The translations under genes were made by a program, and so were the position numbers. The notes under the pieces were generated by a model. That model was not told the origin of the DNA. It ran no database searches and saw only the letters and a program-made list of their open reading frames with translations. Source: Escherichia phage slur16. From it: a stretch of 64,000 nt of DNA. The number at the start of each line of letters is the position of its first letter. Positions within the stretch are counted from its first letter, which is position 1. This document shows, in pieces, positions 19,197-45,607 of the stretch. Where the stretch lies: sequence record NC_028248.1. One strand, written 5' to 3'.

Positions 19197-20318
19197 TTAG
19201 ATAAAACGCTTGAACATAGAAGGTGATGAGATTGATGGAATCACACAAGGAAGTGCTACTTCCTCTTTCTCCAGGAAATTAATAGCAGAAGCTACACAGT
19301 CAGCCCAGTCGTCTTTTCTGTTAAATGTTGATCTTTCCCCGTTGAATTTTTCAAGTTCAGTCAGAAATGCTTCCAGAGTATCAGGATGGAAACTGGATTT
19401 TACAATCCTCACCATTCCTTGTTGGGCAAGATTGGCAAAAGGTGAGAACCTTGTCAGTTTAGATTTGTTGGAAGGCATTGGGTCTTCTTCAACCCTAAAC
19501 CCTTCGGCAAGCAAGGATCTGGAGGAGGTTAAGAACTCACTCTTACCTGCCTGACCGGGGTCCACAGAGAATACGATTATACAATCATCACCATCAAACT
19601 GCGCCTGTTTCCTGATGATCACATCTCGTTCACCAGCCTTTTTACAGAACTTGCCTTCTAGACCTGTGGAATACCTCCCGTCATCCACGTTCTCAGGACA
19701 ATAATCACCGGACAGGTAATAAAAGCCGTCGCTATCTTTACTTACCTTAACACTGGCGGTAAAGTCAGGAAATTTATTACCGGAAGTTCTCTCGGTTCCT
19801 GCCTTATCCCATGCCCTGCAAGATACTGATCCAAGGGGTACTCTATCGGCATCACGAAGGAAAGATCTTTGAAAATAGTTTGCGCCCTCAGGCTTTGCAA
19901 ACCAGTTACCATGAAGAAGCTGAGCTTTTTCCAGTTCCGGCAGACCTTCAAGGAAAGCAAGGTATTCTGGGTTGTCTCTTAAGCAAACAGGATTATCGAA
20001 TATTGTTGCGCCTATAAACGAGAATGACAACGGTCTTGGCTTGATCTCCACACCAAGTCCGTTAACCGTGGTGTATTTCTCTATCAACTCTTCTTTAGAG
20101 TCCCCCCAGATAAATTCACCGTCGCGTCGGATAAAATATCTTTTCTTACCGCATTTCTCCGGATCTGGATACCCTTCATCGTCCAACCACCACCTAACCA
20201 GTTTGGCAAGCATGTGTTCTGAATCGGGGTTACAGCTGATAACCATTCTTGATGGATACTTTGACTGAGATCGCAGACGAGACATCAGATAGTCTATCTG
20301 CTCCCATTCGAATTGTGT
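19197..20318 (-). CDS. terL: terminase large subunit, exon 2 (nuclease domain)
   Basis: Contains ISCNP coupling motif and acidic nuclease-type C-terminal domain; frame stays open upstream of the ORF-track ATG to ~20321 (TTQFEWEQIDYLMSRL...); 3' splice site approximate. Confidence 0.75.
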   Translation of the reverse strand, partial: TQFEWEQIDYLMSRLRSQSKYPSRMVISCNPDSEHMLAKLVRWWLDDEGYPDPEKCGKKRYFIRRDGEFIWGDSKEELIEKYTTVNGLGVEIKPRPLSFSFIGATIFDNPVCLRDNPEYLAFLEGLPELEKAQLLHGNWFAKPEGANYFQRSFLRDADRVPLGSVSCRAWDKAGTERTSGNKFPDFTASVKVSKDSDGFYYLSGDYCPENVDDGRYSTGLEGKFCKKAGERDVIIRKQAQFDGDDCIIVFSVDPGQAGKSEFLTSSRSLLAEGFRVEEDPMPSNKSKLTRFSPFANLAQQGMVRIVKSSFHPDTLEAFLTELEKFNGERSTFNRKDDWADCVASAINFLEKEEVALPCVIPSISSPSMFKRFI

Positions 20319-20637
20319 CGTTTATGTTCGGGCAAGGTCGCTAGTCTTGCCCCGCCATTTTCAGGCAGCTGCATGTCTCCATGCAGACCAGACTATATCT
20401 TATAAGCGACAACAACCGCTTATCCTCCCGTTTCGAATCGCTTGATTCTACGTCTTTCGACTAGTCGTTGAACGTTCATCCTCTCGGATGCTTCGCTGCG
20501 GATTATCTAAATTAACACACTGTTACCATACCTTCGATCTCTCTTCGAAGCCTCTATCATGTTACCATGACAGGTTGGTGGTATTAATAGTAAAGATTTC
20601 CCCGCAATTAGGGAGGTTTTACGAGAGCTACAAATTA
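20319..20637 (-). mobile_element. group I self-splicing intron (ORF-less) in terL
   Basis: Minus-sense conserved elements in order: P AAUUGCGGGGAA (20609-20598), Q AAUCCGCAGC (20504-20495), R GUUCAACGACUAGUC (20473-20459), S AAGAUAUAGUCUGG (20401-20388); no ORF; splits Walker ATPase from nuclease domain. Confidence 0.8.
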
Positions 20638-21063
20638 ACCCTCATCGAAGCAAACCATGGTGTACTCAAGCCCTTGATGGTTAAGCTTATCTTGTACATA
20701 CTCCATGTGGCAGTATTTTACAACAGCTCCCTTTTTGCTTCTATCCCACTTGCCAGTGTTCGGATCAAACCGTGGAAAAATGAACTTATGATCCTTCTCT
20801 CTGAACTTTGGCTTAATGTTTTCAGGCAGATCACTATAAATAGCTACCGCTTTAGGCCATAGTCCACCCTCACCTTCCAACTGCGGGGTTGTTCTTCGGA
20901 ACATAACCACAGAGCTGTGGGGGTCATCAATAATTTTAAGTGGCATCAATTGCAAGAGGAACGACTTGCCAGACCCTGCGGCACCGCCGATTACCAAAAT
21001 ATCTGCATCGTTTTCGAGGATCATCTTCTGCTTTTCAGAACACGGTCCGTAAATCTTAGACAT
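20638..21063 (-). CDS. terL: terminase large subunit, exon 1 (ATPase domain)
   Basis: Walker A GGAAGSGKS and Walker B-like VCFDE; ORF-track stop at 20635 lies in intron sequence. Confidence 0.8.
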
Positions 21064-22166: not shown

Positions 22167-22243
22167 TGGTCTCCACGGAGTGATTCGAACACTCGACCTC
22201 CTGATCCCAAATCAGGCGCTCTACCAAGCTGAGCTACGCGGAG
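22167..22243 (-). tRNA. tRNA-Pro (anticodon UGG)
   Basis: Cloverleaf with C1:G72, anticodon loop UUUGGGA, T-arm GAGUG-UUCGAAU-CACUC, CCA encoded. Confidence 0.85.
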
Positions 22244-22254
22244 TATTTATTATT

Positions 22255-22329
22255 TGGTGGCCCTGGGTGGAATTGAACCACCGTCTGGCGATTATGAGTC
22301 GCTTGCTTGAACCTTCCAGCTACAGGGCC
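22255..22329 (-). tRNA. tRNA-Met (anticodon CAU; elongator, initiator or Ile-lysidine type not resolved)
   Basis: Acceptor GGCCCUG/CAGGGCC, anticodon loop CUCAUAA, T-arm GGUGG-UUCAAUU-CCACC, CCA encoded. Confidence 0.8.
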
Positions 22330-22330
22330 A

Positions 22331-22406
22331 TGGTGCTGATGGCAGGACTTGAACCTGCAACCTATTGATTACAAATCAATTGCACTACCAATTGTGCTAC
22401 ATCAGC
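22331..22406 (-). tRNA. tRNA-Thr (anticodon UGU)
   Basis: Acceptor GCUGAUG/CAUCAGC, anticodon stem AUUGA/UCAAU with loop UUUGUAA, T-arm GCAGG-UUCAAGU-CCUGC, CCA encoded. Confidence 0.85.
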
Positions 22407-22412
22407 AAAAAA

Positions 22413-22511
22413 GGTGCTAGGTGATGGAATCGAACCACCTATGTATTCAACGACTACCTCGTCTATTTTCAGGATTAAAAATCCTCGCCCTTGCCAAAGG
22501 GCTTACCTAGC
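22413..22511 (-). tRNA. aberrant tRNA-like gene (possible pseudo-tRNA; Lys-UUU-like anticodon loop but oversized variable region)
   Basis: Perfect 7 bp acceptor GCUAGGU/ACCUAGC, D-arm GCCC-UUUGGCAA-GGGC and T-arm GGUGG-UUCGAUU-CCAUC, but ~47 nt between D- and T-arms; only CC encoded at 3' end. Confidence 0.3.
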
Positions 22512-22609
22512 TCAGTATGTTGACCATGTTGCTAGTCGGCGATGACGACTGTAACATTTGATAATCCGGTTCTGCTTCCGGCTTTCGCTTAATTACAAGG
22601 TCAACAATA

Positions 22610-22700
22610 TGGCTGAGGGTAATGGAATCGAACCATCATCGAGTCATCCTCAACGGGACGGTTTTCAAGACCGCTTGAGCACCATTGCTCCCTACCCTCA
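22610..22700 (-). tRNA. tRNA-Ser (anticodon UGA), type II with long variable arm
   Basis: Anticodon arm GCGGUCUUGAAAACCGU nearly identical to E. coli tRNA-Ser(UGA); T-arm GAUGG-UUCGAUU-CCAUU; discriminator G; CCA encoded; position 1 is U. Confidence 0.8.
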
Positions 22701-22814
22701 TTTATAAACAATACTGATAATGACACTGATTTTCGAGCAGTTAGTGACTAGTATAAACGACGATAAATATCAATGCCATTATCTGTATGATTTATGCATT
22801 TAAAACTATAAATT

Positions 22815-22901
22815 TGGTGGGGAGTGGTGGAGTCGAACCACCCGAGTCGTAATGACAATAGATTTACAGTCTACACCGCTACCTCTACGGGATAACTCCC
22901 C
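22815..22901 (-). tRNA. tRNA-Tyr (anticodon GUA), type II
   Basis: Acceptor GGGGAGU/ACUCCCC; anticodon region AGACUGUAAAUCU as in E. coli tRNA-Tyr; long variable arm; T-arm GGUGG-UUCGACU-CCACC; CCA encoded. Confidence 0.85.
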
Positions 22902-22905
22902 AATT

Positions 22906-22980
22906 TGGCACCCCGTACTGGACTCGAACCAGTGTCAACGGCTTAGAAGGCCGCTGCTTTATCCACTAAGCTAACAGGGC
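22906..22980 (-). tRNA. tRNA-Arg (anticodon UCU)
   Basis: D-arm GCUU-AGUGGAUA-AAGC, anticodon stem GCGGC/GCCGU with loop CUUCUAA, T-arm ACUGG-UUCGAGU-CCAGU, CCA encoded. Confidence 0.8.
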
Positions 22981-23076
22981 ACTGGGTGGCTTTCTTTTAC
23001 ACCTTAGCCGCCAGAAAAGGTGGGAGACCATGTTTACAATATTACACTGTTAAGCAAAGTTTGTCAAGAAAATATT

Positions 23077-25920: not shown

Positions 25921-26475
25921 TTACTCCACGCTGTCAATAGCAAGACTCATTGCAATACGGTATGCCTCTTCTAATGGTAAGAGTCTCCCCCACACATCCC
26001 AACCGACATCAAACTGCCTGCCAAACAACTGCTGTGTGGTTCCGTGAGCATGACCGAACAGTTGGACCGATCCGTGAGGCTTTCTGTTCCACTTTGCAAA
26101 CTGGTAATGGCTCATACAGATCAAATTCTTGTTGTGGCGAAGCTCGTAATAATCTACAACCTCATGACCGAACTCTTTCATAATTCTGACAGTCGTCCTT
26201 GTGTCATGGTTACCACGAACAAGAATAATATGTCCGTTCAACATATTTAGAACATCTGGGAGCAATTTGTTAATATTCTTATCATTAGTGCACGCAATAT
26301 CTCCTAAGTGAAACACAGTGTCTGCAGGTGACACAACAGAGTTCCACTTGGTGATGATCCCCGCATTCATACTGTCAAGATTGTGATCATACTGAGATCT
26401 GTGTTTTTGACATGAGTCAAACTCCATGACCCGCTGGTGGAGAAAGTGTGTGTCGCTTGTTACAAAGTATTTCAT
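25921..26475 (-). CDS. calcineurin-like metallophosphoesterase (candidate RNA-repair phosphatase)
   Basis: Motifs DTHF, GDIACTND, GNHD, GHAHG; start set to ATG 26475 (GAGGAA RBS) just after the kinase stop. Confidence 0.65.
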   Translation of the reverse strand: MKYFVTSDTHFLHQRVMEFDSCQKHRSQYDHNLDSMNAGIITKWNSVVSPADTVFHLGDIACTNDKNINKLLPDVLNMLNGHIILVRGNHDTRTTVRIMKEFGHEVVDYYELRHNKNLICMSHYQFAKWNRKPHGSVQLFGHAHGTTQQLFGRQFDVGWDVWGRLLPLEEAYRIAMSLAIDSVE

Positions 26476-26482
26476 ACATTCC

Positions 26483-26950
26483 TCATTTAAGTTTAATGCA
26501 GTTTTTAAGCTGGCGTTCCATACGATCCACAACCCTGTCTGGAACATCATGAATGCTTTTACTACCATGGCGGTTTTCAACCACGATTACGGTATAACTA
26601 TACCTATGACTGATCGCCATGTCAATATATTCTTGCACATATTTTTCTTTTGTAAATGTATTACTTACCACGATACGGTCGTATCCCATACGCATCATAT
26701 CTTCTACGTTATCTTTGCACCATTTTGCTGCAAGTGTTACTTTACTTGCATCCCAGTTGTAATTTCCATCATCGTCGTACCAGAACATGTCGTTCTCAAA
26801 ATGTGGATACAGACCTTCTAAAGATAGCGCACTTGCCAGTGTTGATTTGCCAGACCCTGGTAGACCACGCACGATATATAGCATTTTAGACATAGTAATC
26901 CTCCGTTTTAATTTCAACGATAGTATACCTAACTGTTTTGTTAATTTCAA
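26483..26950 (-). CDS. polynucleotide 5'-kinase, P-loop (T4 Pnk kinase-domain-like)
   Basis: Walker A GLPGSGKST near N-terminus; ~150 aa kinase-only size; adjacent to phosphoesterase and RNA ligase. Confidence 0.6.
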   Translation of the reverse strand: MKLTKQLGILSLKLKRRITMSKMLYIVRGLPGSGKSTLASALSLEGLYPHFENDMFWYDDDGNYNWDASKVTLAAKWCKDNVEDMMRMGYDRIVVSNTFTKEKYVQEYIDMAISHRYSYTVIVVENRHGSKSIHDVPDRVVDRMERQLKNCIKLK

Positions 26951-27011
26951 GTGTTGACACTAGGTTATTTGTGTGGCAGGATAGACTGACAAAATGACAA
27001 ATGAGGAACGT

Positions 27012-27929
27012 ATGATGAAGTATTTTAATGCAGACGACCTAGTTGACAAAGGTCTTGTAACCAGCAGATATCACCCAGACCTTGGGTTAAAGATCTATAA
27101 ATATGCCAGAAAAGTATTCTACAACAACTTATGGCATTTGTCTCCTCGATTACTGGAGTGCCGAGGCATTGTTGTCGGTAATGAAGGAAATGTTGTGGCA
27201 TGGCCCTTTACAAAAGTGTTTAACTTGGGAGAAAACTCCACCAACCTGCCTGACAATAAGCTTGTGACGGCGGTAGAGAAAAAGAACGGATTCCTTGGTG
27301 TGGTGTCATCTCATAAAGGTGAACTATTGTTCTCAACAACCGGGTCTCTTGATTCTCCATATTGTAACCTTGCAAAGGAAACCATCCAGGAGCAATGTGG
27401 TAATTTAGATCTTATCAAGAAGGTTATGGGCAATGAAAATATGACATTCATGTTTGAAATTTGTCACCCCTCAGATCCGCATATTGTTCAGGAAGATCAT
27501 GGCGCATATTTGATAGGTTGCAGATATAATGATTCTGGAATAATGCTACCAGAAGCAGCTTTAGATGGGATTGCCAAATACCTTGGTGCAAAACGTCCTC
27601 ACACTGTGCGTGAAATTCCGTTCAGTTATGCAAAAGAATTAGCTGCAGAAACAAGAGGTGAAGGGTATATGATTCGTAAGCCTTACTACCCTTATGATCT
27701 GCAGCTGAAGATTAAGTCTCCATACTATCTGGCACGGAAGGCCGTAATGAGGGGTAAAGCTTGGAAGATTTGGGATGATGATATCTTTAAACGTGTTGAC
27801 GAAGAGTTTTACGGCATGGTAAACTTCATTCGTAACAACTACACAGAGGATGTATGGAACTGCCTCCTGGAGCAGGAACGCCGTGAGATACTCGATTACT
27901 ATTTCCACAACGAGAACTATATGCAATGA
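27012..27929 (+). CDS. rnlA: RNA ligase 1 (T4 RnlA-like)
   Basis: LLECRGIVV, KVFNLGEN and motif I KKNG match T4 Rnl1 ALECRGIMF, KFFNLNEN, KEDG; start at ATG 27012 with GAGGA RBS (ORF-track ATG 26994 also possible). Confidence 0.75.
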   Translation: MMKYFNADDLVDKGLVTSRYHPDLGLKIYKYARKVFYNNLWHLSPRLLECRGIVVGNEGNVVAWPFTKVFNLGENSTNLPDNKLVTAVEKKNGFLGVVSSHKGELLFSTTGSLDSPYCNLAKETIQEQCGNLDLIKKVMGNENMTFMFEICHPSDPHIVQEDHGAYLIGCRYNDSGIMLPEAALDGIAKYLGAKRPHTVREIPFSYAKELAAETRGEGYMIRKPYYPYDLQLKIKSPYYLARKAVMRGKAWKIWDDDIFKRVDEEFYGMVNFIRNNYTEDVWNCLLEQERREILDYYFHNENYMQ

Positions 27930-28276
27930 AGAAGTTGATTGTGTGGCTAGATGACTTGAGAGATCCGTCAAAGTACGGGCTCCAAGACGCTGTTTGGCTA
28001 AAGAATTCCTCCGAGTTTATAGATTTTATTAACGATAATAGAAAGCTCTACAGACGCGTTTCTGAGTGGCATATGGACAACGACCTTGGAGAGGTATTCG
28101 AAGGGTACGATTGCCTATCTATGTTGGAGGAAAAATTTGTATTTGGTAAGCCTCCTGTAGTTGACAACGTGAAGATTTTCGTGCATACTTCTAACCCATC
28201 AGCGGCTCGTAAATTCATGCTTGCAGCTGACTCGTTTAAAAAGTTTGGAATAGAGATTAAACAAAACATCTACTGA
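27926..28276 (+). CDS. hypothetical protein
   Basis: 116 aa ORF, ATGA-coupled to upstream gene, immediately upstream of Sir2 gene. Confidence 0.45.
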   Translation: MKKLIVWLDDLRDPSKYGLQDAVWLKNSSEFIDFINDNRKLYRRVSEWHMDNDLGEVFEGYDCLSMLEEKFVFGKPPVVDNVKIFVHTSNPSAARKFMLAADSFKKFGIEIKQNIY

Positions 28277-28284
28277 GGACACTT

Positions 28285-29046
28285 ATGCGACGACTGATTA
28301 TTATCTCCGGTGCTGGTTTGAGCGCTGAATCTGGTATTCCCACTTTCCGATCTGGTAGCACTGCAATGTGGGAGAATTTCAGCATCGATGAGGTGTGCAA
28401 CATCCACACCTTTGCCAAGAACTACTATAAGGTGCATGACTTTTACAATGCACGTCGTGTAGCTTTAGGCAGTGTTGAGCCTAACCTTGCACATCTTCGG
28501 ATCGCTGAGTGGTATTCCCGCTGGTCTGGTCGTGTGATCAACCTTACCACCAATGTAGATGATTTGCTGGAGCGTGCTGGTGTAAAACATGAAGATATTT
28601 TACATGTCCACGGGTATTTGCCAGAAATAGTCTATGAGGACGATGAAGGAAGTGACGTCATTAAGGACATTGGATACTCTGAGGTAGACGCAGGAAAGTA
28701 TACCTGGGTTAAGCCTAATGTGGTGTTCTTCGGAGAAGTAGCTCCGAAGTATACAGACATGTATGACCTGTTGACTTCTCTTACGAGCAATGATATGGTT
28801 ATCCTTGTAGGGTGCTCCAACACAGTTATCAATTTTAACTGGGAGCTATTCCCTGCCTGCAATAAGGGAACCAAACTACTGATCGTTAATAAATACGACT
28901 CACAGCATCTAGAGGAGAATGGCATTTCACGTAGTGATATTTACCAGTATGAGGATCGTGGCATCCCAGTTTGGTTTAACGGTGCGGTTGATGCCTTCTC
29001 TGATAAAACATTCATTGAGACTGTAGAAAACTTTATGGAACTTTAA
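28285..29046 (+). CDS. Sir2-family (sirtuin-like) NAD-dependent enzyme lacking zinc ribbon
   Basis: GAGLSAESGIPTFRS (Sir2 Rossmann/NAD motif), TTNVDDLLERAG, catalytic HG in LHVHGY; no CxxC pairs. Confidence 0.75.
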   Translation: MRRLIIISGAGLSAESGIPTFRSGSTAMWENFSIDEVCNIHTFAKNYYKVHDFYNARRVALGSVEPNLAHLRIAEWYSRWSGRVINLTTNVDDLLERAGVKHEDILHVHGYLPEIVYEDDEGSDVIKDIGYSEVDAGKYTWVKPNVVFFGEVAPKYTDMYDLLTSLTSNDMVILVGCSNTVINFNWELFPACNKGTKLLIVNKYDSQHLEENGISRSDIYQYEDRGIPVWFNGAVDAFSDKTFIETVENFMEL

Positions 29047-44518: not shown

Positions 44519-45607
44519 ATGGCTGTATTTAATGCTGAGAACACCGCTCATAAAACTGGTGACTATCCGCTGTTTCTGGGACAGCAAATGGGTATGTACG
44601 ACTCTATCAACAAAAAATATCCACAACTGTTCGAACTGTACAAAAAACAAAAAGAACAAGACTGGGCAGAGGATGAAGTGGATTTGTCGCAATCTATTTC
44701 AGATTTTGTAACATGCTCCAAGTCAACTTATGATGTGATGGTGCAGACCTTGATGTGGCAATGGGAGGCTGATAGCGTTGCGGCAAGATCGATCATCTGC
44801 CTCTTTTCACCATTCATCACTAATAGTGAGCTTTTCACTCTATTGATGAAACAGTCAGAGATTGAAGTTCTTCACGCACTAACTTACTCAGAGATTGTTA
44901 GACAATGCCTCCCCAATGCCCGTGAGATTATAGAAGAGATTCAGGAAAACCAAAACGTTCTGAGCAGATCTGGCGTTATTGTCAAATACATGCAAGAGCT
45001 TGAGGTTATTGGTGCAAAATACCGACTGGATCCTTCTAGTGTTGAAGAGGATATTGTGCGGAAATGCATTCTTAGAGCGCTTTTTGCACTTTTAGCCCTG
45101 GAAAGTATTGAGTTTATTGCAAGTTTTGCATGCACTTTCGCAGTAGCTGAACAGGGTATTTTTGTTCAGGTGGCGCAGCTTGTTCAAAAAATCATGCTTG
45201 ACGAAATGCTACATTCGAAAGGTGATTTTGCCATCATTGATATCCTGCTTAATGATCCGGCATGGGAGAAAAGCTTCCTTGAGATAAAAGGGGAGTTAAA
45301 AGAGATTCTTGATGAAGTACGAACCAAAGAGTACGGTTGGAGTGACTATATTTTCAGCGAAGGAAGAGCGATTATAGGTCTTAACTCACCGTTGCTTAAA
45401 GAATGGGTTGACTATAACTGCTCACCGATTTATGATTACTACGGCATCGACAAAGACTTTGTGCCGCCAACAAAGGACCCTCTACCGTTTATGCAGGTGT
45501 GGATGAAACCTTCATTGCAACAGACGGCGAACCAAGAAATGTCGAACACTGACTACCGCGTCAACACAACTGTTAATGACGCTGAAGAAGAAATTTGGGA
45601 GTTTTAA
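44519..45607 (+). CDS. nrdB: ribonucleotide reductase class Ia small subunit
   Basis: Di-iron ferritin-like helices; start at ATG 44519 (AGAGG RBS), ORF-track extension overlaps nrdA. Confidence 0.85.
   Translation: MAVFNAENTAHKTGDYPLFLGQQMGMYDSINKKYPQLFELYKKQKEQDWAEDEVDLSQSISDFVTCSKSTYDVMVQTLMWQWEADSVAARSIICLFSPFITNSELFTLLMKQSEIEVLHALTYSEIVRQCLPNAREIIEEIQENQNVLSRSGVIVKYMQELEVIGAKYRLDPSSVEEDIVRKCILRALFALLALESIEFIASFACTFAVAEQGIFVQVAQLVQKIMLDEMLHSKGDFAIIDILLNDPAWEKSFLEIKGELKEILDEVRTKEYGWSDYIFSEGRAIIGLNSPLLKEWVDYNCSPIYDYYGIDKDFVPPTKDPLPFMQVWMKPSLQQTANQEMSNTDYRVNTTVNDAEEEIWEF

Follow-up and report, generated by a model that had tools for sequence, protein, structure and literature searches.

A tRNA operon of Vequintavirus phages, probably mainly for codon supply, with three embedded structured RNAs

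What is a compact cluster of tRNA genes for in a phage genome, and is everything encoded within it a tRNA? These questions are raised by a locus of Escherichia phage slur16 (NC_028248.1), in which six tRNA genes lie on the minus strand between positions 22,167 and 22,980 of the analyzed stretch of 64,000 nucleotides (nt), referred to as the window. From its sequence, the cluster can be described as the tRNA operon of a Vequintavirus (an rV5-like myovirus) that probably functions mainly in codon supply. The six-tRNA cluster as such is real, ordinary, and has been published previously; added here are the reassignment of its CAU gene as tRNA-Ile2 and the presence, within the cluster coordinates, of three conserved structured RNAs, namely a tRNA-like RNA encoded by a seventh gene and two structured spacers.

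A 1.5-kb stretch around the cluster is 100% identical to Escherichia phage slur12 (LN881735.1; Vequintavirinae, Vequintavirus), and the cluster region is 98.7–99.7% identical in the remaining listed Vequintavirus genomes, including rV5-derived isolates and FV3. At least 80% of the 1.5-kb stretch is spanned by 111 records. Approximately 18 GenBank records labeled “Campylobacter phage” (MG0656xx) are 99–100% identical to Escherichia coli vequintaviruses at this locus, which suggests mislabeling or contamination. The cluster was already known, because seven tRNA features are annotated at its position in the identical slur12 record and because the rV5 set has been published. The rV5 genome paper (Kropinski et al., 2013; PMC3606486) describes the same locus as containing six tRNAs, those for Arg, Tyr, Thr, Met, and Pro detected by tRNAscan and that for Ser by ARAGORN; it makes no mention of a seventh tRNA-like gene or of structured spacers.

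An earlier sequence-only reading of the window had listed six minus-strand tRNAs with an encoded CCA end, and ARAGORN reproduced all six at the same coordinates (Table 1). The CCA was confirmed from the DNA in every gene, so that no CCA addition would be required, and all six tRNAs have a 7-nt anticodon loop, U33, a purine at position 37, a T loop of the form UUCRANY, and N73-CCA. In the covariance-model check that the same reading had proposed for the cloverleafs, Thr, Arg, Pro, the CAU gene and, barely, Tyr passed the gathering score of 29 bits of the Rfam tRNA model RF00005. The exception was tRNA-Ser, which did not reach the RF00005 threshold and had tRNA-Sec as its top Rfam match (40.2 bits, under the family cut-off of 47); by Rfam alone, the refuting condition named in that reading would thus apply to Ser. 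Ser and Tyr were accepted as tRNAs since RNAalifold folded their homologs into class II cloverleafs; compensatory changes affect 10 of 26 pairs in Ser (homologs from Vequintavirus, Avunavirus, and P1-like phages) and 8 of 24 in Tyr. The other four tRNAs were too conserved among the gathered sequences for this kind of analysis.

The RNAalifold consensus of tRNA-Ser combines an 8-bp acceptor stem with a 4-bp T stem, and a long variable arm and G73 are present. The gene thus probably has the “8/4” architecture and would fit the pattern of 8/4 phage tRNA-Ser described by Mukai et al. (PMC5389517). Such a fold would account for the failure of the general tRNA model and the near-acceptance by the tRNA-Sec model. 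In six sequences pair 8:80 is A:U and in one it is G:C, and a 7/5 fold with G64:U80 or G64:C80 is also compatible with these changes. The U1:A72 pair pointed out in the sequence-only reading does occur in this phage, although homologs carry G1:C72 or A1:U72; judged by this comparison, it is a neutral strain-level paired variant and no special feature. An unannotated tRNA-Ser of phage P7 is 93% identical, with compensatory changes at 1:72 and 5:68. The tRNA-Tyr differs from Tyr genes on P1-like viral contigs at 4–6 of 87 positions, and tRNA-Pro shares 63 of 77 positions (82%) with tRNA-Pro of phage T4. Recent capture from the host was ruled out for Thr, as similar genes occur in just 3 of 5426 complete E. 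coli genomes, and also for Arg, whose matches in 978 of these genomes (approximately 77% identity) represent an accessory gene and not the core argU.

The gene with the anticodon CAU had been taken as tRNA-Met in the sequence-only reading and in the rV5 paper, which called a methionine tRNA “seemingly unwarranted” (PMC3606486). This identity was not upheld. The top matches of the gene in 5413 of the 5426 E. coli genomes are genes annotated as tRNA-Ile, and its identity to K-12 tRNA-Ile(CAU) is 79%, as compared to 60% for the elongator genes metT/metU and 58% for the initiator gene metZ. At acceptor positions 1–6 and their pairing partners, and throughout the anticodon-arm core GCGACUCAUAAUCGC, the gene does not differ from the Ile2 genes of K-12 and P7. 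The gene also has C4:G69 and C5:G68, which we take to be determinants for TilS. The hallmarks of an initiator are absent, as G1:C72 is paired and the anticodon stem reads GCGAC/(U)CGC, whereas K-12 metZ has C1/A72 and a GGG/CCC anticodon stem. By these sequence features the gene is of the tRNA-Ile2 type and not a Met gene. By analogy to E. coli tRNA-Ile2, the host TilS would convert its C34 to lysidine, and the tRNA would then decode AUA. The Ile2 assignment resolves the puzzle posed by the supposed Met tRNA of rV5.

Codon usage was compared between 87 mechanically called open reading frames (ORFs) of the window (16,588 codons, 43% G + C) and 21 annotated K-12 genes (6,242 codons). Of the 61 codons, AGG and AGA show the strongest enrichment (4.6- and 4.2-fold); their combined frequency per 1000 is 18.4 in the phage and 3.5 in the host sample, an approximately fivefold difference. 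UCU, ACA, and ACU are enriched 2.0- to 2.5-fold, with ACA ranking fifth of 61 (18.8 versus 7.5 per 1000), and AUA is enriched 1.6-fold, accounting for 15% of the phage Ile codons versus 8% in the host sample. For the six Watson-Crick cognate codons of the tRNAs, mean log2 enrichment is 0.91, a value reached by 561 of 100,000 random six-codon sets. A role in codon supply is well supported for tRNA-Arg and tRNA-Thr; for Ile2 and Ser it is plausible, and for Pro and Tyr the support is weak. Judged from this composition, the six decoders, five of them for A-ending codons, would supplement the host pool for codons that the phage uses more than E. coli does, and phage translation would thereby stay fast and independent of the host tRNA supply.

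Several observations weigh against codon supply as the main role. When the five A-ending cognates were compared with a null of A-ending codons, their enrichment was not significant (6,803 of 100,000). No phage tRNA serves GUA, GGA, CUA, and CGA, although these exceed AUA, UCA, and CCA in enrichment, and the phage shows no excess of the codons that Pro(UGG) decodes (36.5 versus 39.1 per 1000). One caveat of the comparison is that the host sample comprises only 21 K-12 genes. In addition, a deletion in phage V18 (L012 1151–1247; window equivalent 22413–22901) leaves the 5′ half of tRNA-Tyr fused to a 3′ portion of the tRNA-like RNA and removes tRNA-Ser and both structured spacers, the alternative being an assembly artefact. 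This loss of Tyr, Ser, and the embedded RNAs indicates that at least one lineage can do without part of the operon.

The tRNA set closely resembles the classic complement of minor A-ending-codon decoders, which T4 carries as well. Arg(UCU), Ile(CAU), Thr(UGU), Ser(UGA), and Pro(UGG) are shared with T4, and in alignments none of the five differs from its T4 counterpart in the anticodon loop. This anticodon set is also seen in the tRNA arrays of P1-like phages, and arrays of the P1/P7 type have Thr(UGU), Arg(UCU), and Ile2(CAU) in common with the cluster. The T4 operon, with eight tRNAs and the stable RNAs rnaC and rnaD (species 1 and 2), resembles that of slur12 in its tightly packed polycistronic tRNAs with embedded non-tRNA RNAs, and the layout found here is of the T4 type, with spacers of 1–11 nt, a single upstream consensus promoter, and three non-tRNA elements supported by covariation. 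A relationship of these elements to rnaC and rnaD was considered and rejected, as blastn and local alignments gave chance-level matches only. The two operons also differ: that of slur12 has Tyr and lacks the Gly, Leu, and Gln genes carried by T4, all six of its genes end in CCA whereas the annotated Pro, Ser, and Ile genes of the T4 record have no terminal CCA, and it contains no homing endonuclease of the segB type.

Adjacent tRNA genes of the cluster are separated by 1–11 nt, apart from two long gaps. Upstream of tRNA-Arg lies a near-consensus promoter that is presumed, from its sequence, to be the start of a polycistronic transcript (Table 1). Two diverged relatives known from viral metagenomes (L015 and L016) retain this promoter, its spacer having a single substitution, and they likewise maintain the leader and the gene order. 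Host RNA polymerase would initiate at this sigma-70 promoter and yield a single early precursor with the predicted order leader, Arg(UCU), Tyr(GUA), hairpin RNA, Ser(UGA), three-way-junction RNA, tRNA-like RNA, Thr(UGU), Ile2(CAU), and Pro(UGG), from which host RNase P and 3′ processing enzymes would excise the tRNAs. No terminator was found between tRNA-Pro and the small ORF that follows it, and this ORF may be co-transcribed with the operon.

A different main role would be anti-defense, with the operon replacing host tRNAs that are destroyed by anticodon nucleases, retron effectors, and systems of the PARIS type, and with repair genes nearby completing the response. E. coli defenses are known to deplete several of the tRNAs concerned: PtuAB of retron Eco7 depletes tRNA-Tyr, PrrC170 and PARIS deplete tRNA-Lys (PMC11555353), and retron Eco2 depletes tRNA-Arg and tRNA-Pro among others (PMC12916289), and phage tRNAs expressed from strong promoters rescue infection (PMC11555353, PMC12916289, PMC10264068). 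The near-consensus promoter of the operon is consistent with this role, as is the inclusion of Tyr, which is no rare-codon decoder and is poorly explained by codon bias (UAC + UAU 40.3 versus 30.8 per 1000). So is the full healing and sealing gene set 3–5 kb away, which consists of a ligase, a kinase, a phosphoesterase, and a cREC_REC gene. It is followed by a SIR2-family gene (28285–29046). The tRNA region of T5, whose tRNA-Tyr acts against retron Eco7 and whose tRNA-Lys acts against PARIS and PrrC, has in common with the operon a strong promoter, tRNA-Tyr, and a Lys or Lys-like gene.

The link to nucleases was already part of the sequence-only reading, which had related the anticodons UCU, UGA, and UGG to the neighboring RNA-repair genes. 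These genes are indeed present, whereas the signature of resistance is not. van den Berg et al. (2023; PMC10264068) hypothesized that anticodon-loop substitutions mark nuclease-resistant phage tRNAs, but no such substitutions relative to K-12 were seen in five of the six tRNAs, as the loops of Arg (CUUCUAA), Tyr, Ser, Ile2, and Pro are identical to those of argU, tyrU, serT, the Ile2 gene, and proM, respectively. The sole difference in the sixth is U32 instead of C32 in tRNA-Thr (UUUGUAA versus CUUGUAA in thrU). Because five of six loops equal their K-12 cognates, nuclease evasion is not indicated by the sequence, although differences in the tRNA bodies may matter. The case also differs from that of T5 in these host-identical loops and in the non-canonical Lys-like gene. 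Furthermore, retron Eco2 is reported to defend against Vequintavirinae despite their tRNAs (PMC12916289), and the set closely resembles the generic A-ending-codon decoders of T4. Anti-defense supply thus appears possible but rather unlikely as the main role, and it is compatible with the preferred role in codon supply.

The sequence-only reading, which had counted six genes, overlooked a seventh tRNA-like gene at 22413–22511, and the gaps at 22512–22609 and 22701–22814 proved to be conserved structured elements rather than plain spacers. In the seventh RNA, the acceptor stem comprises 7 bp, the D arm has the normal GG in its loop, and the T arm is canonical (GGUUCGAUUCC). Its “anticodon” stem of 5 bp is closed by the 5-nt loop UUUUA, an extra hairpin is placed between the conserved linkers GAAAAUA and GAAUACAUA, and the 3′ end in this phage is A73-CC-U. 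Homologs were found in Avunavirus (Av-05, TH18), Seunavirus (KE22, GEC_vB_MG, Csp-D17, GAP31), and Mydovirus (KB57), and one further homolog adjoins a tRNA-Asn in the Schitoviridae (N4-like) phage UTK0002. The RNA thus spans four genera of the Vequintavirinae and one N4-like phage, and members beyond Vequintavirus and Avunavirus end in U73-CCA. In GenBank, the gene is labeled tRNA-???, tRNA-OTHER, tRNA-Lys, tRNA-TERM, or pseudo, or is not annotated.

RNAalifold analysis of ten homologs gave five helices with 28 pairs, 14 of which show compensatory changes. In this alignment, 97.9% of the cells pair in the standard way, compared to 33–47% when the partners were slid by one to three columns, and the observed covariation was matched by none of 500 shuffles. 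The covarying pairs and these controls show that the seventh gene encodes a real RNA under selection. Covariation (U:A to C:G) extends to the fifth pair of the “anticodon” stem, leaving variable loops of 5 nt (UUUUA, UUAUA), 6 nt (CAUCCA, CAGCCA, CCUCCA), or 7 nt (CAUCAAA) in place of a 7-nt loop with a conserved anticodon. Judged from these alignments, the RNA is unlike a conserved decoder, and its non-canonical loop argues against ordinary decoding. Matches to its conserved linker GAAUACAUAG within the window, which could represent pairing targets, occurred at chance level only. A run of T residues at 22407–22415, after the tRNA-like gene and just before tRNA-Thr, has a length of 6 in slur12, 5 in phage ime, and 4 in L015 and is a slippage-prone homopolymer.

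Alternatively, the seventh gene could be a working tRNA-Lys(UUU) and the cluster an operon of seven decoders. The anticodon stem of such a tRNA would be unusual in having 4 bp, and its variable region would hold 27 inserted nt. If the U31:A39 pair is opened, the loop reads UUUUUAA with the Lys anticodon UUU, and this 7-nt loop is the one seen in the RF00005 alignment, whose score lies above the gathering threshold. A73 is present, and A73 together with a UUU anticodon are identity elements for E. coli LysRS. Several GenBank records, including those of BASEL phages, annotate a tRNA-Lys. In absolute terms, the excess over the host is largest for Lys codons (74.0 versus 44.5 per 1000), with AAG being threefold enriched. 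Since a single opened pair yields UUU next to A73 and Lys codons are in excess, an odd tRNA-Lys was kept as a minority reading. It is nevertheless unlikely, because the covarying fifth stem pair leaves loops of 5–6 nt in homologs whose loop sequences are not conserved (UUUUA, UUAUA, CAUCCA, CAUCAAA), the discriminator base varies (A, U, C), the 3′ end reads ACCU here instead of CCA, and the linkers at the extra hairpin are much longer than those in any class II variable arm.

As a non-canonical RNA, the seventh gene product is reminiscent of those allo-tRNA(UAU) species that were inactive in translation (PMC5389517): both have five helices, a long extra arm, and a variable “anticodon”, and the RNA described here mostly ends in U73-CCA. 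It differs from the allo-tRNAs and from the Bacillus cereus “tRNA-Other” (PMC5389517) in keeping a canonical 7/5 acceptor and T branch and in its unusually long conserved linkers. This likeness to allo-tRNAs is one of architecture.

The spacer between tRNA-Ser and the tRNA-like gene forms an unannotated three-way junction (Table 1). Its hairpins are CCGG-AAGCAGAA-CCGG and AGUCG-UCAUCGC-CGACU, and its core reads AAUUAAGCGAA..CCGGAAGCAGAACCGGAU..CAAAUG.UACAG.CGUCAUCGCCG.C.AGC. The core is 83% identical to lambda positions 44866–44952, in the late leader between orf-64 and S, and 88% identical to a stretch of P7 and D6; over unrelated phage families, its identity amounts to 83–90%. The number of viral contigs with the element is at least 120. 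Among the 5426 E. coli genomes, 426 carry it in prophages or P1-like plasmids, in every case unannotated. Its closing stem occurs in five sequence types (lambda, a lambda variant, P7, slur12, and the diverged vequintavirus L016), which are out of register for a column-wise covariation analysis. For this reason, a matrix of own versus crossed duplex energies was used: strands paired with their own partner reached −10.9 to −20.7 kcal/mol, compared to an average of approximately −5 and a best value of −10.5 for crossed strands. The second hairpin shows a U:A to G:C exchange.

Directly upstream of the junction element lies a tRNA-Ser(UGA) in 26 of its 28 non-lambda copies. This adjacency and the 93% identity of the Ser genes identify the Ser gene and the junction element as a module common to Vequintavirus and P1-like phages. 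In 93 of 96 lambda-type copies, by contrast, no tRNA ends within 200 nt upstream. In lambda the element lies in the Q-dependent late transcript without an adjoining tRNA, and in P7 within the C1-controlled ban operon. P1/P7-like and lambdoid phages are temperate, and their closing-stem sequences differ from that of slur12. In P7 (L004 1391–1477 and 1587–1702), the tRNA-Ser(UGA) is unannotated, and a match to STnc100 (43 bits, cut-off 47) occurs approximately 20 nt past the junction element. Contigs L047 and L056 combine a 5′ closing strand of the P7 type with a 3′ strand of the lambda type, so that the closing stem is unable to form; recombination between phage types seems to take place at the conserved junction core.

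Searches of Rfam 15, self-cleaving ribozymes included, gave no match at E ≤ 1 for the junction element and the hairpin spacer of the window, and none at E ≤ 5 for the lambda and P7 copies of the junction element. For both spacers, hammerhead, twister, pistol, hatchet, and HDV-like ribozymes as well as C4 and Y RNA were rejected because no credible Rfam hit was obtained, and matches to YrlA and tmRNA (17–25 bits) merely overlap true tRNAs. A literature search did not find the core sequences of the junction element in any paper of the searched library, and papers on prophage small RNAs (AgvB/AsxR, Pas/STnc100) concern other RNAs. A short peptide gene within the element was excluded, as a 1-nt indel between the lambda and Vequintavirus types (ATGCGTACAG versus ATG-TTACAG) shifts the downstream frame. 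The boxA-like motif TGCTCTT, considered as a sign of Nus-dependent antitermination, is located 5′ in the lambda type and 3′ in the P7 type, is absent from slur12, and belongs to the extended closing helix; it was thus regarded as a coincidence. Conservatively, the element may serve in the processing or stability of tRNA precursors or give rise to a small RNA liberated from the spacer.

The second spacer, between tRNA-Tyr and tRNA-Ser, is predicted to form a long hairpin with a minimum free energy of −26.4 kcal/mol (z = −4.2), and none of 200 shuffles folded equally well. It is restricted to Vequintavirus (112 records). One compensatory change (C:G to U:A) was found in L016, and G.U to G:C and G.U to A:U changes were found among L015 and L016. 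The hairpin could be a processing site or a small RNA.

All three elements could in principle be functionless, decaying remnants of tRNA genes or horizontally swapped cassettes. The absence of the seventh gene and the spacers from V18, the recombinant junction copies with mismatched closing strands in two contigs, and the mosaic tRNA arrays of P1-like phages would be in line with such decay. However, decay yields no compensatory changes, whereas the tRNA-like RNA has 14 covarying pairs, the junction element has five mutually exclusive closing-stem variants, and the Tyr-Ser hairpin has a compensatory pair; the conservation of the junction core at 83–90% identity over unrelated phage families also contradicts decay, which we therefore consider very improbable. 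At the level of aligned sequences, covariation shows that the three embedded non-canonical RNAs are under selection for structure. The operon appears to hold at least two undescribed families of RNA that would not decode, a tRNA mimic with an intact elbow and no conserved anticodon, and a junction RNA that trails phage tRNA arrays. That one or both of them act in the tRNA arms race, as nuclease decoy or inhibitor, as substrate or guide of RNA repair, or in the control of precursor processing or read-through, is a speculative idea to which we give little weight.

Table 1. Coordinates of the tRNA operon and of neighboring features in the window.
Feature	Position	Strand	Evidence and characteristics
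Small ORF, 89 amino acids	21851–22120	minus	start 47 nt past tRNA-Pro; no Pfam match
tRNA-Pro(UGG)	22167–22243	minus	ARAGORN; RF00005 66.4 bits; C1:G72, A73-CCA encoded
tRNA CAU (Ile2 type; annotated and published as tRNA-Met)	22255–22329	minus	ARAGORN; RF00005 60.0 bits
tRNA-Thr(UGU)	22331–22406	minus	ARAGORN; RF00005 79.5 bits; A73-CCA encoded
tRNA-like RNA	22413–22511	minus	ARAGORN “tRNA-???”, 99 nt; RF00005 35.5 bits with 26–27-nt insertion
Three-way-junction RNA, unannotated	22512–22609	minus	closing stem GUUGACC/GGUCAAC around two hairpins, highly conserved junctions
tRNA-Ser(UGA)	22610–22700	minus	ARAGORN; U1:A72, G73-CCA encoded
Tyr-Ser spacer, long hairpin	22701–22814	minus	15-bp arm GAUAAUGGCAUUGAU / AUCAGUGUCAUUAUC around nearly invariant interior of approximately 40 nt
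tRNA-Tyr(GUA), class II, long variable arm	22815–22901	minus	ARAGORN; RF00005 29.9 bits; A73-CCA encoded
tRNA-Arg(UCU), decodes AGA/AGG	22906–22980	minus	ARAGORN; RF00005 67.8 bits; G73-CCA encoded
Operon 5′ leader	22981–23038	minus	two substitutions across three diverged Vequintavirus sequences
Sigma-70-type promoter TTGACA-17 nt-TAATAT	23039–23067	minus	10/12 consensus matches; approximately 60 nt upstream of tRNA-Arg
Metallophosphoesterase	25921–26580	minus	PF12850/PF00149; this gene and the three below also by GenBank annotation of slur12 and ime
P-loop kinase (AAA_33)	26483–26950	minus	PF13671
Rnl1-family RNA ligase	26994–27929	plus	PF09511
cREC_REC “cyclic-phosphate processing” domain protein	27926–28276	plus	PF20274

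Outside the operon, a group I intron (Rfam, 84.3 bits) at 20369–20647 on the minus strand interrupts the terminase large-subunit gene, with flanking ORFs at 20635–21063 and 19197–20285. The terL gene of phage ime is uninterrupted, in contrast to the split gene in the window, and terL introns have been reported for rV5 (PMC3606486).

The re-reading of the CAU gene as tRNA-Ile2 is relevant to the modeling of codon supply in such therapeutic-candidate phages. The seventh gene, annotated in five ways or not at all over more than 100 genomes, is marked by its covariation as a real conserved RNA. The tRNA mimic and the junction element reach well past Vequintavirus and appear to be undescribed, and an RNA motif common to lambda, P1-like, and rV5-like phages yet not in Rfam offers a cheap, testable lead in well-studied phages.

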